Assembly (NCBI GenBank): GCA_905178155.1
Contig: CAJINV010000022.1
Span: 565,799-629,798, forward strand
From: Amoebophrya sp. A120
Taxonomy: Eukaryota > Protista > Dinoflagellata
DNA: 64,000 bases
Direction: 5' to 3'
Part shown: piece by piece, positions 24,592 through 64,000 of the stretch
How the letters are laid out: each line of letters starts with the position of its first letter
Numbering within the stretch: the stretch's first letter is position 1
Program-made: the position numbers and the translations under genes
The notes under the pieces: model-generated
What the model was told of the DNA's origin: nothing
Seen by the model: only the letters and a program-made list of their open reading frames with translations
Database searches by the model: none

Positions 24592-24960
24592 TGTTGATCG
24601 TGTGATCTTGACCTCCCGAACACACTCCTTCTTCTTCTTCTTACGGGAAACAAAACGCGTCCTTTCCTGATTGTGTTTGCTCAAAACCTTGAGCCAACGG
24701 CTCAAACGAAAATTGTTGTTGTACATGTTTCAGCATGAGAGATTCGCTCTCCACCCGGTTCCAGGGTCTATCTAATGTTCTCTCTCAAAGAAAGAAGAGT
24801 GCGAATAAACTTTTCCCCAAAAACGAATACGAAAGATATTGGAAAAACGATGGATGCGACTAGTCGTGAAAAAACAGATACCGACTAGCGACGACCACGA
24901 TAAGCGAAAAAACAAGCTCTTGACCGATGAGAGATAGGTGTGAACACATTGTGAACAACA
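24592..24960 (-). repeat. Copia 5' LTR
   Basis: Direct repeat of 18670-19038. Confidence 0.97.
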
Positions 24961-39800: not shown

Positions 39801-40131
39801 TTCATGCAGACGACGCAACACACACCACGTCTCACCGACACTGAGGGTTTATATACATTTGGGGCTTTAACATCTTCGTGGGCGGGTGTTCATTATTTTC
39901 AACTTTACATCATCAAGCCTTGGCGATGAAGATCGTGCGGTGCTCAAAAATGATCGCACAGCCCGAACAGGTTGGCTCAGATTCCGTGGCGAAAGTGGGC
40001 GGGAATTTGAGCTCAAGTACGTGGCGCGGGGAAGTTTATGGGGTCCGCTCGAGGACGACCCCGGTCCGGGTTGGCGTAACGTTGGTTTCGTGCTCTCTGG
40101 GCCAAGACCGGTTGCGCAACAGCGGCGGTGA
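36323..40131 (+). CDS. MVALLKKRMPG family protein, copy A (signal-peptide-like N-terminus; possible ubiquitin-like domain)
   Basis: Frame restored across elements 36864, 37341, 37827 and 38414; last exon ..GWLRFRGESG..GFVLSGPRPVAQQRR*; middle exons uncertain. Confidence 0.65.
36864..37168. mobile_element. TIR introner (family C-like)
   Basis: TATCCTAAGAAAAAACG / CGTTTTTACGTAGGATA; flanks TCCGC/ACCGC; absent in paralogue B. Confidence 0.9.
37341..37609. mobile_element. TIR introner family A
   Basis: Perfect CTGCT repeat; absent in paralogue B. Confidence 0.95.
37827..38150. mobile_element. TIR introner
   Basis: TATTACAGTGAAAAATGC / GCATTTTTCATTGTAATG; flanks CTCTC/CCCTC; absent in paralogue B. 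Confidence 0.88.
38414..38735. mobile_element. TIR introner family E
   Basis: TATTGTGAGGCAAAATCCCCC / GGGGGATTTTTCCTCTCAATA; flanks GTTGC/GTTTC. Confidence 0.88.
39162..39415. mobile_element. TIR introner family A
   Basis: Perfect ATGCA repeat. Confidence 0.92.
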
Positions 40132-42905
40132 ATGTCGCTGCAATTTTTCTCCGGAACATCAAACGGGTTACTTACGGTGCACGTACATCAAACGGTTACT
40201 TAAGTGACAAAACAGCATTACAAATTGATGATAGAGAAATGAGATCAACTGTCATTCAAGGCCACAAATTTACACTTGCAAGTGCTACCACCTAGTCACT
40301 GTATATATTTTTTTGTTTTTACACCGACCTGACCACTGTTTGAGCCAATGTAGACCATGAAAAGTGGTCTCAAATCAGCTATCAACCGTTAGTAGAAATC
40401 TTCTGTACTACAATTTTACGTTTCGAAACAGCATGAAAAGATCGAACTTTCATATTTGTGCCAAGGGAAAATTCTAAAAATACCATCATGATCCTATACA
40501 AAAATTAAAATTTAGAAGTGAAAAACCGAAGTAAATACACATCAGCTTTTCTCTTTTTTAGAATATAGCGGTGTGTAGCCACAGCTATTGATTCCGTGTG
40601 AAGAATCAAGAAAAACGTCTTTTGAGTTTTTTCCTGGAGAGTTGAGTCTTGTGAGTTTTTTTGAAGAATCAAGAAAAACGTGTTTATGAGTTGTTTTCTG
40701 GCAAGAAAAAGTGAGGAAAGGAAGAAAGAAATTGTGCCTTCTCATGCTGAAAATGCAACACAAACTGAATTTTCCAACTCAGCTGAGCAGTCTTTTGGGA
40801 ATACATCAATGCGCAAAACGTTCTTTCGAATCTCGGAAATCTTCGAGTGTTCTGAAGGAACAACAAGCAGGCGCTTTTGTTGCCCTGCCAAGTACATCAA
40901 GCCGTGGCACTCTGAGCACAAAGCAACCCCGAGCGAAAGCTCGATGAGATCATTTCTTCGATTGATTGATACCGCCATCACCAAACTGCAGGACAAATAC
41001 GCAGATCTGTCATTGTCGTTTTGCGATAAGTTTTCGCGAGATGTCAGTCAAGGATGGATCATCTCCAGTGATGATCACTGTTTCGACGAATTGCTTTTGT
41101 GTGATGTATGGGGTTACGAAGATAGATGACGTTAACTCAAAGTCAAAGGATAATTTTCTTACCTTTCCGGATTGATATGCGAAAACCGAATGTCTCGGGT
41201 GATTGTAGTAGAGCGAAAAAAGAAGAAACGGCTCCAAAAATGGACGGGTTGCTCAGCAAGGTTGTGCGGAGCCGCCTCATATCTTCAGCGGGGAAACATG
41301 GCCACTCGACCCGTGTTTGTTGGTTTACAACACCAAGCTAAGGGCCCAAAGTGGTGACCCATGTTGCCGTGGCGCCGATTGGGGCCGCCGTAGAAGCGCG
41401 TGCCCGCGCCGCACCCGGCCACGAATGCGAACGGGCGCGCCGCCAGTTTACATCCCCGGGCGGACCGCGTCCGCGTGCGGCGCATCCGTGCGCGCACATA
41501 AAAACAAGCGCCCCCATATGAGCCACCACGGCAAGCTGCGCAATTCGGTGGGAGCCCCGAAGCAGTAAGTGGCCCCGCGCTCGGTCGTCGGTGTGCACTC
41601 AGTTGCGAGCGCGCCGGGCATTAGACAAGCAAAAAGGCCCAAACTCACCTGCGCGCCGGCGCAAAGGGCGGGGCGAGCGATCTTCCGGCGCTCCAGAGCA
41701 TACAAAAGAGCAGGGGGGGCAGCGCTCTGGCAGGTCCCTCTGCCGCCCGCCTGTCAACGGGCGGCGCCCCCACGCCTGCGTCGCCTGCGGGGCACGGCCG
41801 ATGGGGCTCAACAATATTGGGCCCAAGCCCGGGCGCCGGGCCCCGTCCGCCGGCTTTTTGGCCCCGTACGCCCCCCAACCTACCCACCCACCATAGCACG
41901 CCGGCGCCAGGGTGTTGCATGCTGGCGCGCTGCGTGGGGGCCACGCCCACCACCCCACCCACCCAACGAGGCGCGGCGTGGTTGGCGTGTGTGGCGCAGC
42001 CATCTGTAGCGCAGACGCCTACCAACCTACCCACCCACCGTGGTGGTGCAGCGGGCAGGACAGCGGGAGCGACGAATGGACAGCCCATGGACCCTACGGA
42101 CAGAGACGACGAGTATCGCCGCGTGCAGGGGGGATAGATTTTTGTATTTCGATCGGACGGGCATCAAGAGTCCTACGCACCGCTTTAACACCAGGATCGG
42201 TCCAACTGAAGACATGCGCTGGCGCTGGACCAGCAGAGCTACTTGAAACCAGAGAGGACAATAAAAAAAATGTGCTACTTCTCATCGCGCTTGTTAAGCT
42301 CTTTACGAAGAAGTGACGTTGCAAATAACTTATTCGCTAGTGTTGTAGATTGTGCAGCTGAGATGTCGATCATGCGAGCAAGCGTCGTGCTGAAGACGGA
42401 GTTCTTTGCCCACCTCTGTCATTCCGACAGGAAGTGGTTTGTTGTCCCGCCAAATAGTGGTTGTCTGAGGACAAAGCACCCCGAGCGAAGGCTCGATAAG
42501 TACCATCTCTCTACACATTGCCAGGACTGTAGTAGATAGCAGATCGGTCATCTACGAGAGCGTCGGGAAAGCGGAGTCCAAACAAAAACTATAAAGGCCT
42601 ACAGCCGAAGATGTGATCGACACCAGCTACGATTAATGAACTAGCGTCTTCGCGCAGAAGTTTTCGCGAGGCGCCAGTCAGTGGATAAAAATCTGTGACG
42701 ATCAAATTTTATTCTCGGCGACGAGAACTTTGACAAGATCCAGGGACGAGTAGTACTTTTTTTCGACGATAAAACTTTCACTTTCTTGACCTTATTAATT
42801 GATTTCTGCTTTACGTGTTTCTCTATTCGAGTTGTCAATATCCGTATATTTTCTTTGTCATTCAGGCGCGCCGCTCTTGCCGCACCTTCGCTAGAAGAAG
42901 AAATT

Positions 42906-45900
42906 ATGGTGGCTCTTTTGAAGAAGAGAATGCCCGGGTGGAAGATGATTGGACCATGCATCTGCTTACTCTGCGCAGGAGCGGCCCATCGATTCGCGCT
43001 GGCTTCCGTTGCTGGTACTCCATGTTCGCAAGGTGTTGAAGCCGCGAGCAGTTCAGCATCTGATGGGGACAACAGCAGTACCCTGCAAAGAACACCGCCC
43101 CACGTGGAAGATACCGACGCGCGCGATGTTGATGTTGCTATTAGCGGCAAACGCACAAGGCATGGGCAGACAGGTGGCGAAGATGGCGGTGAGCCTGCTC
43201 GTCCGGATAAATTTCTCAGAACTGTCGCTGAGCAAGCGCAGCATCTCACCCAGACTTCATTTGTCGATCAGCTTAGTAGCGACGGGTCATCTTCGTCGGG
43301 GACCACAACATCCGCAGCAGGCCCGACTCTGCAAATCCTGCGTCTCAGTGGGGGCGTCAAGACGGAAATCGGTTACGAAAAATGGAAAGACTGGAAGGTC
43401 TGGCAGCTTCTCAGCGAGGTCGAAGTAAACTACCGCCCCTCACCGTTCGAAATCTTTACCAGTCCGCCGCAGCTTGTCCTCACGGCTGGCGCATCGCCAC
43501 TCGCGCTGAGCGATCGCGATGGAGGGGAAAAACTGGTGTCGACAGTGCTGCACGACTGGTCCTTATCCAAGAAAAATACGTTGTTAGTGTAAATTTGTAA
43601 TGCGCAGCATGCAAATTGATTGCGCCTGTCATGCTGGCCCTGCATAGTAGGGTCCATTCAAGGGCGTTTCACGTACTATCTGCGCATGACAGGTTTTTGC
43701 TGTCATGCGAGACATATTTGTCATGCTAGTCCTCCAAGAAAGTTACACGTACAATCTTTTTTTCTTGGATAGTCCTCCGTGAAGGGGCGTGAGGATTTAA
43801 GTGGAACTTCCTCTGCTACTCCTTTCCATGATTCTGTCGTGCCGCTGACCTACGTGGCGAGAGGGCAAAAACTACACTTCGCCACGTTTCTGAACATGTG
43901 CTATGTGGGCGCAAAGGGGCCGGACAAGCCGGTCAAGATAGCTGAGTGGGAGGCTTTTTTGCAACAGGCGCGGGCGGGGAAATTGGCCGACAAGACGGTG
44001 CCGGGTGTAGAACAACAGCTATTGGCGTTTATCCGTGCGGCTTTTCTGCCGATGACCTCGGTGGACTTGTTACCAACGCTAGACGACTTGATCGCAAGTG
44101 AGAGTGAGTGTCAGAAAACTTGCTTGCAGTGGCTAATCGCAGGAATGGAGAAAGCTATGGCGGCGAGTAACCCTGGGAGCGTTTCACCGCCCTGGACTTT
44201 CTTCACTGCAGCCCATCACTACGACTACGAAAGCCGAACCAGGGTGGTTCCGTTTGTATGGCGTTCTCAACAAACGTTACACTCTCAACTGTTAAATGAA
44301 TTTGCAACGCATCAAGACCGCATCACAATTTTGGCATAGATTTAGATGCTGCTTAGCCCTTCGTCTTCGAGAATTTGTCAAGCGAAGCAGCTTGATCGTC
44401 TGGTGGCTAATGGTCATTTTGCATGACAAGTCATGTAGCTGTTGAAAGCGTAACGCCTGAGAGCCCCATAATTTGACGCAACTCTTAAGTCTGCGCGACT
44501 TCGTTTGCAGCTCGTGCGTATCAAATGCAAAAATGTCTGGGTCTGGAAACTTGTGATGCTGGTTGGCGTATCGTGAGGAGGCCACAAGTGCTGGCTCAGC
44601 ATGACAAGTGTGTGAGCTTCTAGGTGTTGCCTACTCTGCATGACAAACTGCGTTTCTGCATGACAGAAAAATGGCGCTCTTGGGTAACTAACGTGCATGA
44701 CAAATTTGAGAGTCATGCCAGACAAGCATGACAAACATGCACTCTTCCAGACCCAGACATTTTTACATTTGATAGTGCGAGACCTGGGTCAGATGACGAT
44801 CCTATCGACTGCGAATATAGTGTCTGGGTCGGGGTGGATGTCGATCTAGTTGTATTGTTTTTTGTATATAGGGTTTCTTCATGGACTACTGTGTGCAACG
44901 CGATGGAAGGTTTACGTAGCTAAAATTATGTCCAAATTGCTGTAAGCATCAACGAACGTTTTTTTCCGCTGCAAGATGAGAGCGTGGGTTCTTACGGGTT
45001 CATCGACGCCCGTTTGGTATTCAGCTTTGAACCCTTACCGCGCACCAGACACTTATAGCACCGCATAGACCTTCGTATCAACTGTAAAAATGTCTGGGTC
45101 TGGAAGATTTCCAGGTTTGTCATGCATATTTCGCATGGGCTATGATGCCTGTAATGCACTACCTAGCATGACAGATTTTTTGCGGGTATCTTGATGCCGA
45201 TCCCGCATGACAAATGCCCTCTCCGCGGAGCAAAAACTGGACGCCTCTACTTGCTGTTCATGCAATACAGATTTTTTTAGATTCCAAAAATAGCATCACA
45301 AGTTGCATTCCTCCAGACCCACACACTTTTGCAATCTATACGTCGTGCAAAGCTACGAAACCAATCTTGAGAACGATGGGCTGGTCCTTATCACGTTTCG
45401 ACGCAAACACCTGCCCCACGGTCATTTGTCCCAGCAAATGAACGTAAATCGCCCGCCGCGCTTACCATCGCCATCGGTTGCATTTGATGTCTCTGCATTG
45501 TACGCAAATCACACAACACATCACGCCCCGTCGACATCGAGGGCATACAGTTGCCATACTATCGAGGGCGGGTGTTTGGGGTTTTCAACGTGATATAGCC
45601 ACGACTGGGCGATGACGATCGTGCGCTACTCATGGCGGAGCCATATCCATTGCAAATGTTTTCTCATGATCTGGAAGGATAGATTCTTCCTCGCGATACT
45701 CTTCTTACAACAAGCAAAACCTGCTCTGCCTCCATTGAGGAGCAAAATAAGCGAGTCTGTATTTGCGTATACAAAGAGCGCACTTGTTACCATGCGGGAT
45801 AGACAACATCAAGAGGCCGTCGCAAAAACTTCTGATGCTGGGGCAGGCGATCTCTCAGAAAAAGAAATAGTGTGCACCTATGCAGCAAAGTCGGCATGAC

Positions 45901-49493: not shown

Positions 49494-50144
49494 TGTGTAT
49501 ATGATTCTTAATGGTTAAGCACGAACTGCCTCTCCACGCAATACAAATCCACTGGTTCAGAATTTTACCGATCTATTTTTCCGATCCTGTTTTACAAATG
49601 TATGATGTTCTTTCTTGGGGAAGTAGGGATCTCATTTTTATCGTATTATCAAATCTGTAATGCAAGTGGCTTTTCTGCTCGCAAATGCCCGATCAAGATG
49701 CTCTTCCGTCGGTGGTAAATCCTGTATGATTTCTAAATGGTTTTTTTTGGATCTTCGTGTATGATTCTCATGGTGTTCAGCCGGTCGCAAGCACTATGGC
49801 ATTTACCAATCGCTTTTCGTGGTCGCGCATTACAAATTCGCACTGTATAATTGTCGCTCTTTCTTTAACTCAATCGTCAAGGCGTCGGAGGGTAAAAATA
49901 GCATTACAAATCGTATTTCGTACTAAATTATAGGAGTAGAATCCGCATTACATCGTGGGGAAACATCGTTTTGGTGCATTACAAATTGGTAGGACATAAA
50001 GACCGATAGGAAACACGGAAACTAACGCACGAACATCGGGGAAAGAAATAAACTGTCGCGAAACCGCACCTGATTGCGGTCTATTTGGATTATTTGGGAT
50101 AATATTTGTGTTCTAACCTCTCCATTTTGAAACTAGATCCTTCA
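49494..50144 (+). repeat. Gypsy 5' LTR
   Basis: Direct repeat at offset 10418; right end inferred from CA followed by the PBS. Confidence 0.85.
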
Positions 50145-50146
50145 AT

Positions 50147-50164
50147 TGGTGGAGAACCTGGGCA
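50147..50164 (+). other. Primer-binding site, probably tRNA-Ala
   Basis: TGGTGGAGAACCTGGGCA is complementary to a ..TCTCCACCA 3' end typical of tRNA-Ala; repeated at 60565. Confidence 0.7.
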
Positions 50165-50407
50165 ATAATTCGACTAGCTGCTTACGATTTACGGCGTAAA
50201 ATTTGCTATACATTATTTACGGTTTGGGGATTATCGATTATCTATTTTACGAGTTTGCAATGCACTATTTACGGTTCTTGGGGTTCTATCACTACTAATT
50301 TTTATCGGGGAAGTAACTTACTGCAAGATATTTTTACTGGTTTCGCTCGGGTTACAGCTTTCTTTGCGTAAATTTAGTCGCGCTGCAATCAGATTGACAA
50401 AAATATT

Positions 50408-53400
50408 ATGTTCTTCGGCCGAACACGAAACTACGAACAACAACGACAAGAAGACACCGACTGGGATTCGCCGGCATCCTTGCCATTAATTTCGGGCTTC
50501 CGCTCTTGCAATCGCGCGGTGCAGCAGCAACCACAAGGGGACCGAACACAGCAACTACAGGAATTTTGGGAACGGGTTAAAACCATTCGCACTAAGCGCC
50601 GGGGGAAAATGGACGACGATATTCCGCATCGGGGTGCACCAACCCCGATGTCACCACTGAGCGCAGTCTCGCTAACGGAGCAAATTATGGCGGAAGTCAG
50701 TACGGCGACGGCTACGCAGCCCAGCGGAGGAAGCACAAACGCCGACCCACCGGCCGCGGCAACTATCACTACTACTCCTACTGCTACCACCAGCGGAGCA
50801 ACGGAAACGGGTGGAACAACCACTACTACTACTGGCATAGCAACTACTACCACGACTACTGGAACAACAACTACCACTACGGGAACAGCTGAGGGAGCGC
50901 GCGACGGAGGAACAACTTCAGGGGAACAGGCGAAAAGCTTCGCGACCCAGGTCATTCGGGGCCTAGTAGTAATGGTAGTCCAGCTGCTATTTTGGGTCAT
51001 TGAACTGGTGGTGACGGTCATCTTCGCCTGCGGGAAAGAAATCTGCGTTCGCACAGCAGGCCTGGCATTCAGCGGAGGAAAATGCGTGATCAACTGGGGA
51101 AAAGAAATTCGGATTAGCGCGGCGGGAATGAAAGCCGATGTTGGCCACACGAGCACAACGCCGGCCCCTGCCGTTACCCCGCCCTTAGTAACCGCCACAA
51201 GAACTTCTACGCCGCCGACTCCAGTCGCCGCCACGCCACCAACCACTACTGCTTCCGGCCAATTGGATAGTAAAAAGCTTATTTTCCTTGGGGTAGAGCC
51301 CACGTCCACCACGTCTCCCGACTCGGTCAGCGGACAGATACTTTACAAAGACTTGAAATTGGCCGGGCTTACAAAAATGCAAGTCTTCGCCCTCCGCACA
51401 CTGGTCCGCAAAGTAGTGAAGGAAAAGTTTGGCCACCGGGTCGACATGATTTTCTCGGAGGGTTCTATCATTGTGGATTGGGCTGCTATTCCGGGCGTCG
51501 ACGACAAGGCAGACAAAACGGATTATGCAAAACCACAACTACCCCGTCTTTCATTCCGGGCGAAAACGCAGAGGGAGGCTGTTTTGGAGATCATCAATTC
51601 CCGCTTTCACCTGCAGACGGTGACACAGCAAAAGCAGTCCTGGCAGACCCTCGATGCAACTGGGACGGCTTTGGCGATTCGAAACAGGATGCAGACGCAG
51701 CTTGCTATCCACCCGTCGGAAGCGTCAGAAGAGTTTTTTGGTGCTGTTCTTTCGGAATTCGTTGAGCAACTCGAAGCCGCATGGGGAATCAACGATCAAC
51801 AGCGGATTACTATCCTACAAGAAATCCTTGACGAGGTCAGCTTCGTGGCAAGAAATGCGCGAGAAGTTGGGTCGAGTTTAATCAGCTTTGTTGCTGGTTA
51901 TCAAGCTGCATTCGGAATGCTCATGTCGGAAAGGGAAAGAACGGGAAATACGTTTTTCCAGCTCACGGCTGAAGTCGGTGCCGATACCGAGCGGAAGCAG
52001 TTTGTGGAAAAACTCAAGTACCGCACTAGCCTGCCGATTTGGGCCCGGACCAAGTTAGACGACTACTTTGGGGACCGTGCTGAACCTGTCGCCGCCCAGT
52101 CTTTACAAAAAGTGCTTGACCGCTTGGCACTGTTGGCGCAGTCGGAACAGTCCAAGAGCAACGCCGACGGCACTGCAAACCCCGGCCAACCGAGTAACTT
52201 CAGCGCGACGCAAACAGCACTGCAGGAGCAACAGCAATACTTGAACCGCGCGGCAGGAGGGCGGCTGCAACCACAAGCAGGCGCGTCGCTGGGTACGGGG
52301 ATGTGCAACGGCAACCACCGCCGGATCCACCACTTCCTTTTCAATCGCCGGGTCGCTGCTGCAGAAAAACAGCTTGGTAGGGGACTGCAAGTGGGATTAT
52401 GTGGGTATTGCAAAAACCACCACAAGGTCGCCGAGCCTGGGGGCGCAATCCTTTGCCCTGATAAAATTTGTGCTGATTCAGATGCAGCTTCGGGTGGGCG
52501 CCCGAACCACCTCCGTTGTGACTTGCATTGCAAGCCCTACGAGTACCTCCCGCATATGACGGCTTATCCGGGTACCCAACAGCAAAATACTAACAGCGCC
52601 GCACCATTTCAGCATCAACAGCAGCAGAGACAGAATTTCTCACAGCAGCAGCAACAACAGCAATTTCGTCCTGGTCCGAATCCGTTCATGCAGAAACCAG
52701 CTCAACAGCAGCAGCAACAATGCTCTCGTCACCAGCAACAGCAGTCCGTCAACGTGGAACAAACTCTTTTGGGCGCAGGATGGAGTGCTGGCACCGGGGG
52801 AAGACAGCAGTCGCAATTCGGAGTGGTCCGGTCAGTCACTGCAACTTCTCTTCCGAGCAGTGAAGGAGAAAGTCCCGGGTTCATGCAAATGGATATTTGT
52901 CATGCATTTTCACAGTCCGCTCCGACAAACAGCAGTGAAAATGTGAAAGACATTTTCGCGCAGTGCGGATGGGTCCCGAAACACGACGATCAGGGGACGA
53001 GGGCAATTTACGGACTCAGGATGTGTAATGCGGGGACGCAAACCTACTGCGCATTTTCTTCGACGAATTCCGACGCGGTTTACTTAAATACTTCGGCGGA
53101 CGAGTTGGAGCGATATTTGGGTGGGGAAGAAATTTCGAAGGAACACATGTGGAGCGCCGAACCGGCCGGGTCTGTTCCGCCTCTATCTCTTGTCGCGAAA
53201 GTCAGCTTGATGTACACAAAATCCAAGGGCTACAATTTTATGGTTCGGAATTCAGGGACGGGATTTTTTGCTGCAAACCTTCCTTTCGACCTGGTGACGT
53301 CGGTCGTCGACGAGACCACGGGCACGGAGTACATTAACGAAGGAGTGCGGGCACACGCGGCGAGCTACTTCAAGAAAACGGAACCGAGCAAAGCACCCCG

Positions 53401-53830
53401 GCCCCGGGGCGTAGTTACCATTGCCGGAAAACAGTACGAAGCTATGCTTGACAGCGCGTGCTGTGTTGGCCCGTGGGATGGTGGTAACAACATGATCAGC
53501 GCGAAGCTTTTGCGGGAATTGAAGAAAAACGCGCCGCAAGTCTTACGGAACCAACAGACCGACGGGGTGGACATTGTGCAGCTGGGGGCGCGCAATCACC
53601 TCGTGCACTACGAGCGGAAACTGGTGGAAATCGAAATTGTTTTTCGCAGCGCCGATGGTACCGAGGAGAAGAAACTGTGGCTGCCTTTCGCGATCGTGGA
53701 TTGGCTTTGCGAAGGGGACGATGTAATTATCGGGCTGCAGACCTTTGAAGAACGACTTGGAGTGGTGTTTATGGGGTCGAAGGTGAAGCTGGAGAAGCTT
53801 GGAATTTGTATTCCTCGCTCTCTATCGTGA
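50408..53830 (+). CDS. gag: Gypsy Gag-protease ORF
   Basis: 1140 aa; Thr-rich tracts, hydrophobic segment, Cys/His cluster, poly-Q, C-terminal aspartic protease AMLDSA..DVIIG. Confidence 0.85.
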   Translation: MFFGRTRNYEQQRQEDTDWDSPASLPLISGFRSCNRAVQQQPQGDRTQQLQEFWERVKTIRTKRRGKMDDDIPHRGAPTPMSPLSAVSLTEQIMAEVSTATATQPSGGSTNADPPAAATITTTPTATTSGATETGGTTTTTTGIATTTTTTGTTTTTTGTAEGARDGGTTSGEQAKSFATQVIRGLVVMVVQLLFWVIELVVTVIFACGKEICVRTAGLAFSGGKCVINWGKEIRISAAGMKADVGHTSTTPAPAVTPPLVTATRTSTPPTPVAATPPTTTASGQLDSKKLIFLGVEPTSTTSPDSVSGQILYKDLKLAGLTKMQVFALRTLVRKVVKEKFGHRVDMIFSEGSIIVDWAAIPGVDDKADKTDYAKPQLPRLSFRAKTQREAVLEIINSRFHLQTVTQQKQSWQTLDATGTALAIRNRMQTQLAIHPSEASEEFFGAVLSEFVEQLEAAWGINDQQRITILQEILDEVSFVARNAREVGSSLISFVAGYQAAFGMLMSERERTGNTFFQLTAEVGADTERKQFVEKLKYRTSLPIWARTKLDDYFGDRAEPVAAQSLQKVLDRLALLAQSEQSKSNADGTANPGQPSNFSATQTALQEQQQYLNRAAGGRLQPQAGASLGTGMCNGNHRRIHHFLFNRRVAAAEKQLGRGLQVGLCGYCKNHHKVAEPGGAILCPDKICADSDAASGGRPNHLRCDLHCKPYEYLPHMTAYPGTQQQNTNSAAPFQHQQQQRQNFSQQQQQQQFRPGPNPFMQKPAQQQQQQCSRHQQQQSVNVEQTLLGAGWSAGTGGRQQSQFGVVRSVTATSLPSSEGESPGFMQMDICHAFSQSAPTNSSENVKDIFAQCGWVPKHDDQGTRAIYGLRMCNAGTQTYCAFSSTNSDAVYLNTSADELERYLGGEEISKEHMWSAEPAGSVPPLSLVAKVSLMYTKSKGYNFMVRNSGTGFFAANLPFDLVTSVVDETTGTEYINEGVRAHAASYFKKTEPSKAPRPRGVVTIAGKQYEAMLDSACCVGPWDGGNNMISAKLLRELKKNAPQVLRNQQTDGVDIVQLGARNHLVHYERKLVEIEIVFRSADGTEEKKLWLPFAIVDWLCEGDDVIIGLQTFEERLGVVFMGSKVKLEKLGICIPRSLS

Positions 53831-56800
53831 CTATCTTTTGAAGACAAAAATTTAGAAAGTTGCAAAACAGGGCTTGCAGCCGGTTTGAAGGGTTTCGCAC
53901 GGTGTACGGCCTCAAACTGCAACACAGCCGCGCGAAAATCAAAACGGAAAAACGAAGGCGAGAAACGGGTCAGATTTTTGCTACCAGGGGAAGCGATTTA
54001 CTTTGAAGTTGGGGAGTACGAAAAACAAGAACTACCGATGGAATTCAAGACCGGACTACGAAAATACCTGTATGATGAAGATAAGAACTACGAAAAGAAC
54101 TCTCCAGCAACAGTACTACAGAACAAGGTCGAAAAAGCGCTACAAATTAAAGCAAAGAATTGGGAACAAGAAGAACGAAAAACAAAGAAGACAGTCCAGA
54201 TTTCGAGCCTTCCGGATGATCGCGAGTTTATTCCGGGCGGGAGTTTTCTTCTCGATCCGACAGCAGTTGGGAACAAGCCGATCCGAAATCCAACTTTTAA
54301 TGCTGGACTATCTAACAGTGAGAACGAAAGACGCAATCTGTTATGCGGGAAACAAGATCTATGGAGCAGCTTTGAAAAGGGAATGGAAATTAACAATCAC
54401 GAACAAGCACTGACAACCAGCACTGAGGAATTAGAATTTTTTCCGCGAGAACGGGAACAAGACGGTGAAGGAATTGCTACACCGGTGACAGAAGAATTTG
54501 AAGACGAGAGTAAAGAAGTAAATTTTTCCGGGGTCCGCAATTTCGAGATGGGGGAAGACGATTTTCAGGTGGGGTTTTCCGGTTTGGGTGGACCTCCCCA
54601 TGAGGTGGACCCAAACAGCAGTACCGCCCTGGAAGGAAAATATCGAATGTGTATGATGAAAGAGGAAGAAGAACTTGACGAACGGAAAGAAGAACTTGAA
54701 GAAGAAGAAGAAGATGCTGCGCTGTCCTGTCCCGACCACCCCAGCAGCGGGAATAGTGAACTACAAAAAGAAATAAAATTGTGTACGATGCAGCAAACAG
54801 TACGAATCCCGAGCGAAGACGAAGTTTGTATCCGGGTGCATTTAGACGAAGAGAAATTTGAACGCAACAAGGTTTACAACCTTCAGGGCCGAGGGGGTGG
54901 AGCGCTTCCGGGATTTGTCATCGAGCCATCAGTGATCGTTCTGACCATGGAAACCGCCTGTATGCCAATCGTTTTACGGGTTTCGCACAGTAGCAGAACT
55001 TCAAGGAAGTTGGGGGTCGCAAGTTTTGTCGTCCGCGAACACTCCGATCGGCCTATCTCAAAGCAGGAAATTGACAGTGCAGTTTTGGGACTATCAATTT
55101 TACCACGCGGGCCGGAGCTCTCGAAAACTTTGTATTGCAATCTTGCAAGAGCTGTGGGGGACGACGGAAATTCAGAACAAGACACTACGAGCCGGGGGCG
55201 CAGTTTCAGTAAAATTCGATCAAGGTTCCACGGAGCCAAGTACAAAAACGAAGAGAACAAGTACAAAGACTTCGAGGAGGAAAAGAAACTTCTGGAAGAA
55301 GAAATTGCGGATAAGAAGTCGAAGTGGAAAGCCGGGGGCGATAAACTTTTACGAACAAGCCAGGAGTGGAAGGACAGGGTCAGAAAAGCACAGGAAGAAA
55401 AATTAGTGGATTTGCCGGAGCCGCTGCGGACACAGATGATCGAGCTGGTGGTGGAAAATGCGGAGCACTTGCATGACGATGGGGCGGAGTTTCCGCAGCT
55501 AAAAGGGATTCTCGCTCGCCACGTCATCAAACCGAACCCGCAGTGGAAAGCAATTCAGCCGTACAAAACCAACCCGCTGGACGAAATACGGACAAAATTT
55601 TTGCTGGAAGAGCATATTTTTGAAAACAAAATCCGGCCGCTCGACCTGAGTAAAGAGCAACCCCCGCCACACACCTCGCCAACACTGGTCGCAGACAGGA
55701 AAAATCATCGGACGCGCCGGCTGGTAGTGGACTACCGATTTTACAACCAACAAGTCGAGGATCAAGCCACAGTAATGCCGCGGGCAGATGATATTTTCAA
55801 AAAGTTGATCCACGGAAACCCGAAGTGGTTCGTCGTTTTGGATTTGTCGATGGGCTATAATCAGATGCTGCTAAGTCCATGCACAGCGCCTTACCTTAGT
55901 TGGTCGACGAAAAGCGGAATTTTTATTCCGGTGCGACTCCCGTTGGGTCCAAAATGGGCACCAGCACTATTCCAGTCTCATACTCAAAATGTTTTTGGGT
56001 TTCTGGAATGGTTGTCGGTGTTCATTGACGACCTGACGCACAACGCAAAGGACGACGAAGAACTGCTACAGCGGGTGGCGGAGTTGTTCAAAAGGTGCAA
56101 GGAAAGTGGGTTTTGCCTGTCTCTTCGGAAGTCAGTCTTTGGGGCGTCTAGTGTCGAAGTTTTGGGATTCGAAATCGACAGAAACGGAAGAACAGTTTGC
56201 GCGAAGAAGAGAAAAGTTTTGCAAATGTGGCCCCTTCCCACTAATTCCGAAGCTTTGAAGTCTCTGTTGTGTTTCAGCAACTACTTACGCGAATTTATTC
56301 CGAGGTTCCCGGACTTGGCTCATGTTCTCCGACCCTACTCCGAAAAGCAAAAAAGGTGGTCTGGGTTTGCACAGGACGCTGAAGCGCAAGACGCACTCGA
56401 AAAGTTGAAGCATGCCCTGGATGCACATGTTTATCTTGTGAGCATCGATGTGGAGGCAGCACGAGCTTGGAGAACGTCGGGGCGGCCAATAGAAGTTTTC
56501 ATCGACGCATCGGACATTGCGTGCTCCTTCGTCGTTACGCAGCGACCAGCACCGCACCAGAAGCCACAACCGGTCTACTTCCAGTCCAAAACCTGGAACC
56601 CGACAGAACGCAGCTGGAGTACGATGGAGAAAGAAATCTTCGCCATGCACTACTGGTGCCTGGAAGGTGCAGATGAGGTTTCTCGCTATGAATATTTGTT
56701 GTACTTCGACCACAAGAACGAAGGTCCGCATGAGATGGCATCTTTGTGGGCTAACACGCGGGTGAGCTCCAAGGTTCGCCGATGGATTTCTGAAATCATG

Positions 56801-59800
56801 GAACGGCTGGGGTCGTGTTACAGAATATTTTTGGCTGGGGAGTGGAACGTCGTTGCCGATGCACTAAGCCGAACTTGGTGGGGACAGCAAGACGCCGACG
56901 CAGAAGAAGTTGCGAACTCCGTGGGGATTCCAAAATATGTGTCCGACTTCATCGAGTTTTTGTTCGACGCCAAGAAGCCAGAAATCGGAAAACAGCATGA
57001 CAAACGGGATTTGGAAGTAGCAACAAAAGTCAGTAGTATGGTTTCCTGCCCTGTTTCACAGCTGATTTTCAACATGTTTGAAAATCCCAACCGATTACGG
57101 GGTCAATTTTTCTTGCAGTTCATGAGCCGTTTTCCGGTTTACGGGTTTCTCCAGTTGCAAAGCAAGTTTTTGCCCGCGATCAGTCACAAACACGCATTGG
57201 AAATTAAGTGCTACAGCACCGACACCAGAGGAAAGGCATGGCATATCGAGGCTAAATGCAAAGTGCAAAAATATAGCTGGAGCAACCTGGTCCGGTTACG
57301 AAAAGCGGACAACGACGACAGACAAGCCCGGTACGATGTTGCGCGCAGTTTCCGGCAGTGGTTGATGACCCTGACACCAAAAGCGGGACACGCTGAAGAA
57401 TTCCGGTGCTACACGGTGCTACCAGATGTTTTTTCGGAATACCGAGGTGACTACGAAATGGATTCGATTAGCAGGACGATTTTGAACTACAATCCGAGTA
57501 CCATGGCGATTCAGTGGCCAGAAGTAGTCTGTCCAAATCCGGTGAAATTAGACACGCTTGCAGTTGGGGGCGAGAGTCACTCCTTCCTCGACGGAGTATA
57601 CAAGTGTAACTGCAAGACGCCTCTAATTCCAGCGCTACTACAAGCTGCGGAACAAGATCAGGACTTTGAAAACCACGAACCACGACCGGACAACAGTGGA
57701 GAAGAATTTGCAGGGGAAGAAGAAGAGTTTTTATTTGCAGCGGACGACGAGGAGTTTTTCCCAGACCCACTCGAAGAACTTTTTGGAGAACCAGCTGAAC
57801 CGGTACAACATGCAGTGCTGGTCGCTGAAGATCCCGCTCGACAAGAGAACGAGATGGAGCTTGAAGCTTCCGATGGCGAACCAGTGGAAGATGAGGAAGA
57901 CGATCTACTACAGGACGCACCGCAAGCAGTACCGGTGGCACACAAAAGTCAACAACAGCAGAAAGCAAAAGCGGGAGAGCAAATACGAAAATTTGCTTGG
58001 GTCGTGTTGAAAGGAGAAGAACCAAAATTGGAACAGTTCGATGCGGGAAAACTTTACAGCGAAATTTGGCACGACGAAAGGAAAACGGGCAAGGCACAGC
58101 ACCTAAAGTGGGTCGCTGCTACTGGGGTCGATCTTCTTGGGGGTGCCGACTTGGTTTGGGATGCTTCCTGGGGTACGCTAAGAGTAGTCCTATTTTTTCG
58201 GGCTAAAGCGAAGAACACCTTTCGCATCCTTTTCGGCCGACCAATCGAAATTTTAGTTGAGGTTGCAGGCAGCTCCGCACAACTTCCCGAAGATATTCGC
58301 AGCAACAGTAAGTACCTGGGGGCGCTGCTGATTGGGAAGAAAAGACTTTTCCAGGAAATAGCAACGGTGGAAATTAGTGTTGCAAGATTGGAACTCGCCC
58401 GGGAACAACGAGGAGATGAACACTACGGGCCAATCTGTCATGCGGTTTCAGCAAAAGACGAGCATGAGGATGATGGGGATTTGGAGTGGTTTGATATTCT
58501 CCTTCGAGAGATGAAGCTACCGCGGAAAGAAGCAAAGAAACTAGCACGCAGACTCCGCATGGGAGATTTCCGATTTGATGATGATGGAGTTTTGGTGCAG
58601 AATGTAGAGGGGGTTTGGTGTACTTGTGTTCCAACTACATTTCAGCTGCATCTACTTCAGGAATCGCATGACAAACACCATGGAACAGTTAGTGCTACTC
58701 TTTCTCGGCTCCGTAATGAAAATCTTTGGTGGGTGGGGATTGAAGCGATGGCGGAAGAGTATTGCGATGTGCGATGCTTAGTATGTGGAATCGAACGGGC
58801 AAAGCAAAGGACCGACGCTTTTTATTTTGCCGACCGGGTTACGCACTTCGGTGAGATTTTCTTCATCGACCACCACGGACCCTACGAACAAAGCCGGCTT
58901 GGAAATAAATACTTGCTGACAGTAGTCGACGCAGCGACGGGCTATGGGTGGATATTTCCGGTTGCCAACACTAGTCTACCTCTTGTTGTTGCGCATTTGA
59001 AAACAGTTTTTCACGACCAGGGGCACTGTACTGCCATTCGCTGCGATAACGGATTTGGAACTCAGAAGGGAGTACTGGGAAAATTTCTGAAGTCGAAGAA
59101 GATTAAGTTTCGACCTGGGTCACGCGAAAATCCACGGGGACAGTGGCCAATCGAATTTCCGCACAAAGATATGAGATGCTTCATCGCTACGAAAATGCGT
59201 TTCATGTCGAAAAAGAATACTTGGGATTTGTATGCTTCGGAACTTCAATGGTTTTGGCGAACTCTTGAACGACCAGCATGGGGAAACAAAAGCGCCCACG
59301 AATTCCGATTCAACGAAAAGCCACGCATGGAGCTGAGTACGGTAGCGAAACGGGTAGAGGAAATTTTTGACGACAACGAGGATGGCCTCGACGTTCTGGA
59401 TTTTAAGACCCGCCAGAAAAACGAAGTTCTTCTACGCCACCGATACCGCCGGGAAAACACTTTTACGCAGAACGACGAGCGGGTCGCGTTGAACAACAAC
59501 ACGCTCTTCCGCGTTGGGGATATCGTCTACTATCACAATATCCGGGCTGAGATTCGGAGGAAGGATATTTTGAGTGGGCTGAACCATGCTGCTTTGTTTA
59601 TGATCAAGCAGGTCATATCTCCTACCACGATGTACTTAGTAGACTGGCGGGACAGCATCGAGCAAATTTCTTTCGTGCAGCCTGTGCACCGAAAAAATTT
59701 GTCATCGACTGGTCTTCGCGTCGAGAACTTCGTCGTGGATTTGAATCGGCAGCACTACTGTGAAGCCGAAAAGTGCAATTATTTTGTCGTGCATTATGAC

Positions 59801-59929
59801 GCTTTTCGCTTACGTTATTTTTATCAAGTAGGAGGAGAAAATTTGTACTGTAGTCGTAAGTTTTTAGAGGACAAAATCAGTGGACTTCGTCAGTTCGTGC
59901 TGGGGGCGGTTTGTGTATATGATTCTTAA
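53831..59929 (+). CDS. pol: Gypsy Pol (RT, RNase H, integrase), same frame as gag-PR after one TGA
   Basis: RLVVDYR, LDLSMGYNQ, VFIDD; IDAS..EKE..DH..ADALSR; H..H..CLVC, FIDHHGP..CDNG..E; the ORF ends 18 nt inside the 3' LTR. Confidence 0.93.
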   Translation, partial: LSFEDKNLESCKTGLAAGLKGFARCTASNCNTAARKSKRKNEGEKRVRFLLPGEAIYFEVGEYEKQELPMEFKTGLRKYLYDEDKNYEKNSPATVLQNKVEKALQIKAKNWEQEERKTKKTVQISSLPDDREFIPGGSFLLDPTAVGNKPIRNPTFNAGLSNSENERRNLLCGKQDLWSSFEKGMEINNHEQALTTSTEELEFFPREREQDGEGIATPVTEEFEDESKEVNFSGVRNFEMGEDDFQVGFSGLGGPPHEVDPNSSTALEGKYRMCMMKEEEELDERKEELEEEEEDAALSCPDHPSSGNSELQKEIKLCTMQQTVRIPSEDEVCIRVHLDEEKFERNKVYNLQGRGGGALPGFVIEPSVIVLTMETACMPIVLRVSHSSRTSRKLGVASFVVREHSDRPISKQEIDSAVLGLSILPRGPELSKTLYCNLARAVGDDGNSEQDTTSRGRSFSKIRSRFHGAKYKNEENKYKDFEEEKKLLEEEIADKKSKWKAGGDKLLRTSQEWKDRVRKAQEEKLVDLPEPLRTQMIELVVENAEHLHDDGAEFPQLKGILARHVIKPNPQWKAIQPYKTNPLDEIRTKFLLEEHIFENKIRPLDLSKEQPPPHTSPTLVADRKNHRTRRLVVDYRFYNQQVEDQATVMPRADDIFKKLIHGNPKWFVVLDLSMGYNQMLLSPCTAPYLSWSTKSGIFIPVRLPLGPKWAPALFQSHTQNVFGFLEWLSVFIDDLTHNAKDDEELLQRVAELFKRCKESGFCLSLRKSVFGASSVEVLGFEIDRNGRTVCAKKRKVLQMWPLPTNSEALKSLLCFSNYLREFIPRFPDLAHVLRPYSEKQKRWSGFAQDAEAQDALEKLKHALDAHVYLVSIDVEAARAWRTSGRPIEVFIDASDIACSFVVTQRPAPHQKPQPVYFQSKTWNPTERSWSTMEKEIFAMHYWCLEGADEVSRYEYLLYFDHKNEGPHEMASLWANTRVSSKVRRWISEIMERLGSCYRIFLAGEWNVVADALSRTWWGQQDADAEEVANSVGIPKYVSDFIEFLFDAKKPEIGKQHDKRDLEVATKVSSMVSCPVSQLIFNMFENPNRLRGQFFLQFMSRFPVYGFLQLQSKFLPAISHKHALEIKCYSTDTRGKAWHIEAKCKVQKYSWSNLVRLRKADNDDRQARYDVARSFRQWLMTLTPKAGHAEEFRCYTVLPDVFSEYRGDYEMDSISRTILNYNPSTMAIQWPEVVCPNPVKLDTLAVGGESHSFLDGVYKCNCKTPLIPALLQAAEQDQDFENHEPRPDNSGEEFAGEEEEFLFAADDEEFFPDPLEELFGEPAEPVQHAVLVAEDPARQENEMELEASDGEPVEDEEDDLLQDAPQAVPVAHKSQQQQKAKAGEQIRKFAWVVLKGEEPKLEQFDAGKLYSEIWHDERKTGKAQHLKWVAATGVDLLGGADLVWDASWGTLRVVLFFRAKAKNTFRILFGRPIEILVEVAGSSAQLPEDIRSNSKYLGALLIGKKRLFQEIATVEISVARLELAREQRGDEHYGPICHAVSAKDEHEDDGDLEWFDILLREMKLPRKEAKKLARRLRMGDFRFDDDGVLVQNVEGVWCTCVPTTFQLHLLQESHDKHHGTVSATLSRLRNENLWWVGIEAMAEEYCDVRCLVCGIERAKQRTDAFYFADRVTHFGEIFFIDHHGPYEQSRLGNKYLLTVVDAATGYGWIFPVANTSLPLVVAHLKTVFHDQGHCTAIRCDNGFGTQKGVLGKFLKSKKIKFRPGSRENPRGQWPIEFPHKDMRCFIATKMRFMSKKNTWDLYASELQWFWRTLERPAWGNKSAHEFRFNEKPRMELSTVAKRVEEIFDDNEDGLDVLDFKTRQKNEVLLRHRYRRENTFTQNDERVALNNNTLFRVGDIVYYHNIRAEIRRKDILSGLNHAALFMIKQVISPTTMYLVDWRDSIEQISFVQPVHRKNLSSTGLRVENFVVDLNRQHYCEAEKCNYFVVHYDAFRLRYFYQVGGENLYCSRKFLEDKISGLRQFVLGAVCVYDS

Positions 59930-60562
59930 TGGTTAAGCACGAACTGCCTCTCCACGCAATACAAATCCACTGGTTCAGAATTTTACCGATCTATTTTTCC
60001 GATCCTGTTTTACAAATGTATGATGTTCTTTCTTGGGGAAGTAGGGATCTCATTTTTATCGTATTATCAAATCTGTAATGCAAGTGGCTTTTCTGCTCGC
60101 AAATGCCCGATCAAGATGCTCTTCCGTCGGTGGTAAATCCTGTATGATTTCTAAATGGTTTTTTTTGGATCTTCGTGTATGATTCTCATGGTGTTCAGCC
60201 GGTCGCAAGCACTATGGCATTTACCAATCGCTTTTCGTGGTCGCGCATTACAAATTCGCACTGTATAATTGTCGCTCTTTCTTTAACTCAATCGTCAAGG
60301 CGTCGGAGGGTAAAAATAGCATTACAAATCGTATTTCGTACTAAATTATAGGAGTAGAATCCGCATTACATCGTGGGGAAACATCGTTTTGGTGCATTAC
60401 AAATTGGTAGGACATAAAGACCGATAGGAAACACGGAAACTAACGCACGAACATCGGGGAAAGAAATAAACTGTCGCGAAACCGCACCTGATTGCGGTCT
60501 ATTTGGATTATTTGGGATAATATTTGTGTTCTAACCTCTCCATTTTGAAACTAGATCCTTCA
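59912..60562 (+). repeat. Gypsy 3' LTR (also 5' LTR of the following copy)
   Basis: Preceded by purine tract GGGGGCGG (59902-59909), followed by a second PBS and gag start. Confidence 0.85.
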
Positions 60563-61590
60563 ATTGGTGGAGAACCTGGGCAATAATTCGACTAGCTGCT
60601 TACGATTTACGGCGTAAAATTTGCTATACATTATTTACGGTTTGGGGATTATCGATTATCTATTTTACGAGTTTGCAATGCACTATTTACGGTTCTTGGG
60701 GTTCTATCACTACTAATTTTTATCGGGGAAGTAACTTACTGCAAGATATTTTTACTGGTTTCGCTCGGGTTACAGCTTTCTTTGCGTAAATTTAGTCGCG
60801 CTGCAATCAGATTGACAAAAATATTATGTTCTTCGGCCGAACACGAAACTACGAACAACAACGACAAGAAGACACCGACTGGGATTCGCCGGCATCCTTG
60901 CCATTAATTTCGGGCTTCCGCTCTTGCAATCGCGCGGTGCAGCAGCAACCACAAGGGGACCGAACACAGCAACTACAGGAATTTTGGGAACGGGTTAAAA
61001 CCATTCGCACTAAGCGCCGGGGGAAAATGGACGACGATATTCCGCATCGGGGTGCACCAACCCCGATGTCACCACTGAGCGCAGTCTCGCTAACGGAGCA
61101 AATTATGGCGGAAGTCAGTACGGCGACGGCTACGCAGCCCAGCGGAGGAAGCACAAACGCCGACCCACCGGCCGCGGCAACTATCACTACTACTCCTACT
61201 GCTACCACCAGCGGAGCAACGGAAACGGGTGGAACAACCACTACTACTACTGGCATAGCAACTACTACCACGACTACTGGAACAACAACTACCACTACGG
61301 GAACAGCTGAGGGAGCGCGCGACGGAGGAACAACTTCAGGGGAACAGGCGAAAAGCTTCGCGACCCAGGTCATTCGGGGCCTAGTAGTAATGGTAGTCCA
61401 GCTGCTATTTTGGGTCATTGAACTGGTGGTGACGGTCATCTTCGCCTGCGGGAAAGAAATCTGCGTTCGCACAGCAGGCCTGGCATTCAGCGGAGGAAAA
61501 TGCGTGATCAACTGGGGAAAAGAAATTCGGATTAGCGCGGCGGGAATGAAAGCCGATGTTGGCCACACGAGCACAACGCCGGCCCCTGCC
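60563..61590 (+). mobile_element. Start of a second Gypsy internal region (PBS, leader, gag 5' part) ending at an N gap
   Basis: Matches 50145-51172; N at 61591. Confidence 0.8.
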
Positions 61591-61975
61591 NCGAGAATTT
61601 GTAATGCGAAGCAGCTTGATCGTCTGGCGGGTCATGGTCATTTTGCATGACAAACCATGTAACAGTTGAGAATGTCACGTTTGAGAACCCCATAACACTG
61701 ACATTCTACAAGCACTGCGGAACGCAGGCTTCGAGCCAGATCACGGTGTACTAGATCCAAACGTCGACTCCCTCGTGTATGAACATGGAAAAAAATTTAA
61801 GTCAACCAGGACACAAAGTTTTTGATATCCAGAGCTCATCGATAGTTCATGTAAAAGAGGAGCTCTCAAACTCAACTTCTGCAGCGGGTGCTCATAAACT
61901 GCTCCGTAATAAGTAAGTATAATGGGCTTAGGCTCCTGCGCAACAGGAGGCGCTGAGATAGAATCTTGAATGTAG

Positions 61976-63844
61976 TTGCAGCTGCTTGACTCCTCCCAAT
62001 TTTCCCACGATTCTGCAGTGGACGATGACGACCCTCGGCCGACCTGGTTGGACGGTGTGGAGACGCGGACCAGGCAGGTGCATTATGCTGTGCAAAAGTA
62101 TCGTACTCTTATTGCAATCATGCATTACAAATCTTTTCGTTATAGGGAAATCCGCATTACAAATTTTAGTTCTCATGCTGAGAAAATTTGTAATGCATTT
62201 ATACGAGTACGATACTTTTGCAGTTCATATGCATGCGCAGCGGACAATCCGAGATAGCACAGGACAACCTCGGACTATTCGCTACACCGAGTACGGCCTG
62301 CACCGCAAAGTTTACCTCCGCAAACTGCCCGAAATTTTGCCGCTCCACGTGAACCGCTTCACATACCAGACTGACGGAACAAGCATCACCAGGAAAAAAA
62401 TGCAGTATCTGGACATTCCCTTTCTATTCTACATCGACGCCCAGGCGAGAAGAAATGGTGGTCAAAGCGGCATCAACACGGAGTTTGAACGTATCAACTG
62501 TAAAAATGTCTGGGTCTGGAAGATTCTGACACTTGTCATGCACGTTTTGCATGAGCCCTGATGTCTGTGATACATGCCCTAGCATCACAGATTTTTTGAG
62601 AGCTTCCTGTTGCCTATTCCGCATGACAAATGCCCTCTCCGCGTAGCAAAAATTACGTTCCTTTTGGTACTCATGCAATACAGATTTTTCTGGAATGCAA
62701 ATGCAGCATCACAAGTTGCAATCTTCCAGACCCAGACACTTTTGCACTTGATAGAACGTGCGCGAGTGCGAAATCCCAAATCCCCTGAGGACGCACGCGA
62801 CTACAGAGATATCAAATGCAAAAATGTCTGGGTCTGGAAAATTGCCAGGTTTGTCATGCATATTTTGAATGACCCATGATGTCTGTGATGCATGCCCTAG
62901 CATCACAGATTTTTAGAGGACTTTGCGATGCCTCCACCGCATGAGAAATGCCCTCTCCACGTAGCACAAACTAGAGTCCTTTTGCTGGTCATGCAATACA
63001 AATTCTTCTAGAATCCAGAGACAGCATTACAAGTTTAGAATCTTCCAGACCCAGACATTTTTACGTTTGATAAGAGAGTGGGAAAGGCAAGTGCAGGAAC
63101 GGGGCATGGAAGCTGTGTCGCAGGCGTACGAATATCCTCTGCAAAAGTATCGCACTCGTATAAATGCGAATCTTGCATTACAAATCTTTTTATCAAGGCA
63201 AATCCGCATGACACATTCCATTTCTCATGCTAAGGAAATCTGTATTGCAATTAATACTAGTACGACACTTTTGCAATGCATAACGAACTGCATGCGGTGA
63301 TTTTGCACCACGGTCCAAGGGCCAATGCCGGCCACTACACGGCGGTTGTGAACATCGGTACGCAGCAATCTCCGCAGTGGCGACATTTCGACGACGGGCG
63401 TGTGATAGTCATCCCGACTACTACTGGCTCTTTGTATCAAATGCAAATATTTGCTTGGGTGTCGAAGAAGATTGCAAGGCTTGTATTATTCAAGTTTTCC
63501 ATGCCCAATGAGGTTGAGGTCTGGAAAAATGCGGGGCGTAGCATGACAGATTCTGTGCGGTCTTTCTATTTGTCATGCCTGTTCTGCATGACAAACTCCT
63601 TCTAACCTTGAGCAAAATTAATAGGGCAACTCTTAGGTGTCATGCACAGGATGCATCACAAGTTAGCGCCGTTTTTTGTTTATTTCCAGACCCAGACAAA
63701 TGCGCAGTGCATACTTTGAGCGGATACCTGAAAGAACGAAACGCGGAGGGAAAGACTGTGTGCATGCTTCTGTACAAAAAGCCCAGGCATAGCACTGGTT
63801 TCGTGCTCTCTGGGCCAAAACGGGTCGCACAGCAGCGACGGTGA
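61976..63844 (+). CDS. USP paralogue, C-terminal part, with 5 introners
   Basis: Spliced model colinear with ORF 1497 (DPRPTWLDG, YGLHRKVYLRKLPEIL, YELHAVILHHG..GHYTA..WRHFDD, MLLYKK); ends GFVLSGPKRVAQQRR*. Confidence 0.85.
62084..62229. mobile_element. TIR introner family B
   Basis: Perfect TGCAT repeat; empty site in the first USP. Confidence 0.95.
62492..62753. mobile_element. TIR introner family A
   Basis: Perfect GAACG repeat; empty site in the first USP. Confidence 0.95.
62810..63072. mobile_element. TIR introner family A
   Basis: Perfect AGAGA repeat; empty site in the first USP. Confidence 0.95.
63133..63282. mobile_element. TIR introner family B
   Basis: Perfect ACGAA repeat; restores YE-LHAVILH. 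Confidence 0.95.
63435..63713. mobile_element. TIR introner family A
   Basis: Perfect CTTTG repeat; frame restored. Confidence 0.9.
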
Positions 63845-64000
63845 ATCTCGCTGCAATTTTTCTCCGAAACATGATCAAACGGGTTACGGTGCACACGGGC
63901 CGTCGCGCGAGGAAGAGAAAAACCCAGAAGAGGAAAAGCTGGGAAATAAAATGGTAGCGCAGATAGAAAATCAGCACATGAACCGGGTGCAGCAAAGTGG

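Follow-up and report, generated by a model that had tools for sequence, protein, structure and literature searches.

Two copies of a USP-type ubiquitin protease gene lie in the 64,000-nucleotide stretch of Amoebophrya sp. A120 DNA analyzed here (the window, from contig CAJINV010000022.1), and in one of them, copy B, five elements interrupt the coding sequence at points where the other, copy A, is continuous. The questions raised by this locus are what the five elements are, whether they are removed from the message and whether copy B gained them or copy A lost them. The reading that we favor, with a probability of about 85%, is that they are non-coding hairpin mobile elements flanked by 5-bp target duplications and belonging to the introner class of A120, that probable transcript assemblies lack them to the base, and that they likely inserted after the duplication. 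The parts of the gene pair on which the comparison rests are the following:

398-3569, forward strand: copy A, USP-type ubiquitin protease gene (PF00443)
1541-2200, forward strand: copy A exon with the five empty sites, from its open frame and the alignment to the B exons
61695-63844, forward strand: copy B, USP-type ubiquitin protease gene, its 5' half outside the window
61695-61776, forward strand: copy B exon, from contig pieces and tblastn to copy A
62017-62083, forward strand: copy B exon including the left repeat of element 1, from contigs and the alignment to A
63714-63844, forward strand: terminal exon of copy B, ending at about the stop codon; its tail is short against the long tail of A, and protein P0006 ends alike

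Based on Pfam searches, copy A encodes a UCH domain (PF00443), with an E value of 3.6e-16 for the part that holds the His box; its Cys-box exon matched the same domain at E 0.015, below the cut-off. The Cys box of copy B falls outside the window, and the B-type protein P0006 gave the UCH domain at E 6.3e-10. A UCH domain with Cys and His boxes is the mark of USP (C19) proteases, to which we assign the pair. Copy A is 100% identical to P0001, an NCBI protein of Amoebophrya sp. A120. P0006, which comes from another collection, is identical to copy B at 96 of 102 residues without a gap and runs continuously across sites 4 and 5. A single open frame at 1497-3569 in copy A is colinear with the exons of copy B, and the spliced-out frame of B (237 aligned codons) is 64.6% identical to A. 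The two copies diverge with a dS of 0.67 (bootstrap 0.50-0.90) and a dN of 0.25; with a dN/dS of 0.38, the restored reading frame of copy B was shown to be under purifying selection. The tails of the two genes differ, that of copy A consisting of about 450 low-complexity residues. As the B tail is short and the end of gene B (63796-63894) is 85% like 40083-40182, part of an unrelated repeated region, the 3' end of B may be chimeric.

Some features of the assembly around copy B should be mentioned. A single N at 61591 marks an assembly join, and the 5' half of gene B that is missing from the window shows up as a loose end of contigs. In the contigs of the DNA-like run X1 and of runs X3-X6, gene B occurs in two sequence variants (62313-62464 and 63783-63994), both departing from the window in places by substitutions and a 3-base deletion; a second near-identical copy, a strain mixture or an assembly error are possible sources. 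On the other side of the join lies a retroelement:

49494-61590: LTR retroelement, two identical 1679-bp repeats, with frames of 1150 and 2032 codons (50378-53830 and 53831-59929) and one stop between them

This element is presumably Ty3/Gypsy-like. Its right LTR ends at the assembly gap, so that the identity of the LTRs may be an assembly effect. The idea that it sits inside an intron of B was dropped, because the assembly gap lies between the two and the upstream exon of B is outside the window.

The five elements of copy B were delimited as follows:

62084-62229, forward strand: element 1, 146 bp, repeat TGCAT, family of ~150 bp; a skip of 151 bases in X3, X4 and X5
62492-62753, forward strand: element 2, 262 bp, repeat GAACG, family of ~260 bp; a skip of 267 bases in 4/4 runs
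62810-63072, forward strand: element 3, 263 bp, repeat AGAGA, family of ~260 bp; a skip of 268 bases in 4/4 runs
63133-63282, forward strand: element 4, 150 bp, repeat ACGAA, family of ~150 bp; a skip of 155 bases in 4/4 runs
63435-63713, forward strand: element 5, 279 bp, repeat CTTTG, diverged member of the ~260-bp family; a skip of 284 bases in 4/4 runs

They start with TAT(C/G) and end with (G/C)ATA as inverted ends, and the flanking 5-mers are perfect repeats in all five. Within the first 25 positions, the arms of the terminal inverted repeats (TIR) of elements 1 to 5 match at 22, 22, 23, 19 and 12 positions, and their terminal stems fold with z values of -8.2, -8.8, -6.7, -2.4 and -2.0, respectively (against 40 shuffles each); among the elements of the window the stems reach about 35 bp. 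The pattern of TAT, seven loose bases and AAA is found at all five 5' ends; at the 3' side it is present in four elements and degenerate in element 5. An unbiased scan for a 5-bp repeat combined with TIR gave 22 matches in the window and one in each of two shuffled sequences; it recovered four of the B elements, and the one with the weakest TIR surfaced in a relaxed scan. Over 37 elements of the window, a hand-delimited and not exhaustive set, the flanks match at 0.90 for a repeat length of 5 bp and at 0.18-0.28 for lengths of 3, 4, 6, 7 and 8 bp. The 5-bp repeats behave as target-site duplications (TSD). With lengths of 146-279 bp, TIR, a constant 5-bp TSD and a non-coding sequence too short for a transposase, the B elements show the traits of MITEs. 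An internal motif, GCA-W-B-ACA (with its reverse), is 15 times denser within elements (126 occurrences in 8.4 kb) than outside (56 in 55.6 kb); it is possibly a transposase or splicing-factor site.

Sister copies of the B elements, 78-93% identical (JC 0.07-0.27), are located elsewhere in the window in other genes, and element 2 is 93% identical to 29770-30032. Among these genes is one that we used for comparison:

26227-30950, forward strand: RFC-like gene for an AAA+ clamp-loader subunit, to which protein P0002 was mapped in 15 exact segments

P0002, an NCBI protein of Amoebophrya sp. A120, is 100% identical to this gene and gave Pfam matches to AAA and DNA_pol3_delta2 and a weak match to the RCF1-5 lid; we take the clamp-loader to be RFC-like. 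By the annotated protein, its 14 introns consist of 13 TAT elements, each removed with five extra bases, and one GT-AG intron. The repeats of the 13 elements range from perfect to 2/5 matching bases, seven being imperfect, which makes them a decay series in one conserved gene. The window also holds an exact 369-bp direct repeat (18670-19038 and 24592-24960) and a second duplicated region (35416-40182 and 42037-45422), 85% identical over 1.4 kb and weaker beyond. Elements are placed differently in its two halves (37341 and 39162 versus 43564, 44519 and 45076), and it may contain further filled and empty pairs.

Concerning removal, the original prediction had taken the elements for introns, and the contigs of runs X3-X6 support this: the element and one repeat are removed exactly and the open frame is restored. 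These runs come from one sample whose RNA nature is only presumed. The contigs skip 151, 267, 268, 155 and 284 bases, that is, each element plus five, element 1 in three of the four runs and the rest in all four. The term intron holds because this exact removal is seen in contigs of probably-RNA runs. Read-through of the elements is excluded, since the element length plus five is not a multiple of three in four of them and the remaining one contains stop codons whichever frame is read. The joints slide over 5-6 bases, and at none of the six slides of the five junctions is there a GT-AG, GC-AG or AT-AC pair; the five elements thus lack the GT/GC...AG ends of U2-type introns. A GT-AG reading of elements 1, 2 and 5, with a few codons gained or lost, was ruled out because the contigs skip exactly the element plus five. 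X1 contigs run from exon into element, with the same sequence variants as those of X3-X6. Two runs of confirmed RNA under the same species label, X10 and X11, match element ends only and no gene B exons, and are uninformative on expression. At 62492-62743, X10 shows a same-ended element in a different flank, retained in reads, although gene B exons are absent from this run; the element family seems to be common to another strain.

Besides the five elements, the pair contains an older intron that both copies share and one further element in each copy:

61777-62016, forward strand: old element-derived intron in copy B, ends GT..GC, target duplication lost; joint 61776>62017 without slide in X3, X4, X5 and X6
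1325-1540, forward strand: old element-derived intron in copy A, ends CT..GC, junction fixed by the annotated protein P0001
61592-61694, forward strand: sixth element of copy B, partial, represented by its 3' portion because the assembly gap (N at 61591) removes its 5' end; copy A lacks it near 1250
654-916, forward strand: young element in copy A, repeat AGGAC; its predicted removal joins the Cys-box exon in frame to the remainder

The shared intron aligns over its full length between the copies, with a score of 140 versus 56+-10 in 200 shuffles, and starts in both with a decayed TAT...AAA end. Being homologous in the two copies, it represents one element that was inserted before the duplication and kept by A. 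Its repeats match at 1/5 in both copies and the intron is still removed, so that the repeat is not needed for splicing. An end of this intron at the AG near 1496/61975 was considered and is wrong by the junctions of the contigs and of P0001. The sixth element ends with CATA and is 85% like 44368-44471; it precedes the shared intron on the 5' side, and contigs skip it. Those of X3, X5 and X6 have a loose end before 61695, the last nine codons of which align in frame and gap-free to the A exon (4/9 residues identical, by eye). The counterpart in B of the A region 654-916 lies outside the window.

The empty sites in copy A are located at about 1603, 1854, 1905, 1960 and 2125. Sites 2 to 4 could be placed cleanly, with 3/5, 4/5 and 4/5 bases equal to the B repeat; sites 1 and 5 match at 2/5 each and adjoin a 1-codon and a 5-codon indel, which makes their placement less exact. 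The five repeat pairs of B are identical to each other at 25/25 positions and differ from copy A at 10/25. The contrast first proposed for this locus, five elements with perfect 5-bp repeats in B against an uninterrupted region 1497-2190 in A, stands for all five elements and their repeats, but not for its left border, as 61976-62016 and A 1497-1540 are the 3' end of the shared intron and not exon.

The paralogue pair offers not only empty sites but also an internal clock, because five undiverged elements stand next to an old one common to both copies, and gain can thereby be weighed against loss. From the sequence comparison we infer that the five elements very probably inserted after the duplication, gain being favored over loss. 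Under four assumed rates, the chance of 25/25 identical repeat positions at a pre-duplication age is 4e-5 to 9e-3. Perfect repeats are frequent in the window anyway (6/13 in the RFC-like gene, 13/19 elsewhere), so that five out of five is only modestly unusual. Comparison of element divergence with paralogue dS had been suggested as a check, but the age of an insertion cannot be read from its similarity to sister copies (JC 0.07-0.27), because young elements may derive from an old one, and this way of dating was rejected as unsound.

The best surviving alternative, although an improbable one, is that the elements pre-date the duplication and that copy A lost them by recombination with spliced cDNA or is itself a retrocopy. 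Loss of adjacent introns towards the 3' end is the pattern expected of cDNA-mediated loss, and the five empty sites are indeed adjacent and 3'-ward; the LTR retroelement with long open frames indicates, moreover, that reverse transcriptase genes exist in this genome. However, a processed retrocopy would have lost all parental introns, whereas copy A retains that at 1325-1540 and carries an element of its own (654-916); copy A is therefore no such retrocopy. Across the retained intron from the five sites there is a sixth B-only element, so that loss through cDNA would need at least two conversion tracts sparing that one intron. The five repeat pairs, in addition, are undiverged, unlike those of the known pre-duplication element. 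An outgroup copy that would exclude loss was sought among proteins and metagenomes. One protein search of 263 candidates gave only P0001, which is copy A itself, and none was present among 2905 longer candidates (lengths 409-534 are in neither set). A further protein search gave 73 matches, with only P0006 close, and this is B-like and not an outgroup; a metagenome scan gave one distant USP locus (L001, 40%). The polarity is thus inferred and not phylogenetic. Alignment of the copies, as advised at the outset, yielded the five empty sites, but for lack of an outgroup among the orthologues sought, calling the pair direct evidence of gain by insertion with target-site duplication was a little too strong. 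Gain itself is favored by the undiverged repeats, the unprocessed state of A and the sixth site, while the loss by retroprocessing that the original prediction kept as its alternative is unlikely, given the shared intron in A and the B-only element on its other side.

Very unlikely is a second alternative, in which the elements were removed from DNA, as empty alleles or by programmed elimination, and X3-X6 are DNA. Farhat et al. 2021 (PMC7789003) describe such introns from a comparison of RNA-seq with the genome, which argues against it. The RNA status of X3-X6 is presumed and two gene B variants occur in these runs, but their contigs omit the decayed shared intron as well, and their variants recur in the X1 contig, which is DNA-like and filled. 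Hardly credible is a third, in which the skips are reverse-transcriptase template switches across hairpins and copy B is a transposon-riddled pseudogene: a stem flanked by short direct repeats is a classic substrate for such switches, the joints were seen in contigs and not in raw reads, and element 5 is retained in some X3 and X4 contigs, but the junction at which the shared intron is removed is unique and has no direct repeat, single contigs skip several elements at once (up to the shared intron and four elements together in X5 record 13), the joined frame is open with a dN/dS of 0.38, P0006, a protein from another source (ungapped match of 96/102 residues), continues across sites 4 and 5, and a conserved clamp-loader gene carries 13 such elements, seven of them with imperfect repeats.

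Returning to post-duplication insertion of spliced elements, we looked for the position of the cuts relative to the element ends. Perfect repeats hide the junction and decayed ones show it, so that the introns with decayed repeats are the informative ones. The shared intron is cut one base before TAT and four bases after the closing ATA/ATT, both in A (by P0001) and in B (by the contigs); a CAG is placed two bases past its end in B, the AG of which is unused and would shift the frame if used. In the RFC-like gene, four of the 13 elements help to place the 5' cut, confining it to -1/0, -1/0, -2..0 and -2..0, and the other nine are uninformative. All five informative introns fit a -1/+4 register and none fits -5 to -3, on a sample in which four come from annotated proteins instead of reads and are compatible with 0 as well as -1. 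At one site P0003, a protein of a related species, has the residue expected from a -2 cut. With the -1/+4 register every intron has a T at +2, and the nine predominant non-canonical motifs that PMC7789003 lists for A120 (Table S4) all begin with NT. That paper found no clear splice signature and describes the cut positions as variable (relative to the hairpin, legend to Fig. 3) or unknown, and no statement of a fixed register for A120 introners was found in the literature searched, as far as its text was available. We lean slightly towards the view that A120 splices tens of thousands of introns devoid of signals by one ruler, at -1 of TAT and +4 of ATA, keeping only the U at +2 and ignoring the 3' dinucleotide.

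A mechanism can be proposed for the whole cycle. A putative transposase acting in trans would recognize the TAT...AAA inverted ends and cut with a stagger of 5 bp. If the RNA is then cut at a constant distance from the element ends, exactly one target copy would stay in the message, so that an insertion anywhere in an exon would be silent. The intron would read N-TAT...ATA-NNNN, with U always at +2 and any 3' dinucleotide, as the five informative introns suggest. The cutting would most likely be done by the major spliceosome, with a relaxed 5' site whose bases, from +2 on, would hypothetically come from the element end, and with a 3' site perhaps positioned by the terminal stem. Parts of the A120 major spliceosome, except U1 snRNA, are reported in PMC7789003, and the register bears on how a spliceosome seemingly devoid of this RNA handles introns without a +1 G or a terminal AG. 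If the ruler is real, any exon insertion of the transposon would be an instant scarless intron, and the ruler would outlast the decay of the target duplication and of most of the stem. The published picture of variable sites would then be replaced by one of a spliceosome that measures structure instead of reading AG, and the annotation of some 30,000 introns would be corrected.

The five elements belong to a class that is not new, the introners already published for Amoebophrya sp. A120. They share its host, its TAT/7/AAA inverted repeats, its direct repeats (perfect 5-mers in 5/5), its removal without GT-AG ends (from presumed RNA) and its copies in unrelated genes. According to Farhat et al. 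(PMC7789003), A120 has 29,850 repeated non-canonical introns with inverted repeats of TAT, seven loose bases and AAA and with direct repeats of 3-5 nt; no transposase was found, and gain was indistinguishable from loss. The likeness extends to direct repeats at the exon borders (the legend to Fig. S19 gives a 5-bp example), to the non-coding sequence and to families of related copies. The differences lie in the direct repeats (3-5 nt in the paper, 5 bp in the elements studied here), in the inverted repeats (8-20 nt there, stems of up to about 35 bp here) and in the cut, which is variable or unknown there and fits one register here; empty sites in a paralogue are a further difference. Among 21 rows of supplementary file 8 of Gozashti et al. 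2025 (PMC12130899), which has 58 A120 families, several TIR-DNA families of about 150, 260, 280 and 320 bp are similar to ours, mostly with non-canonical ends; this likeness is one of size and TIR. The TSD called automatically there range from 2 to 5 bp, and the mechanism is not the same in every family. That work also describes integrase-like homology in a TIR family.

The comparison can be extended to other lineages. The introners of Aureococcus, Micromonas, Symbiodinium and Polarella (PMC9860276; bioRxiv 10.1101/2020.10.14.339549) are likewise MITE-like, with TSD and TIR, lose the element with one TSD and partly co-opt their splice sites from the TSD. However, they need a G(T/C/A)...AG that is carried or recruited, whereas the B elements need neither an AG nor a +1 G; the available text of the preprint makes no mention of Amoebophrya. 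The non-canonical introns of Fritillaria borealis and the nonconventional introns of euglenids (PMC11282704) also show TIR, TSD or TSD-like repeats, non-canonical ends and a stem that joins the ends, but the former favor AG-AC/AG-AT ends and the latter follow a pyrimidine|purine rule, in contrast to the constant T at +2 that the A120 elements bring with their own end. What is added to this known class is modest, namely the paralogue clock and the proposed fixed register.
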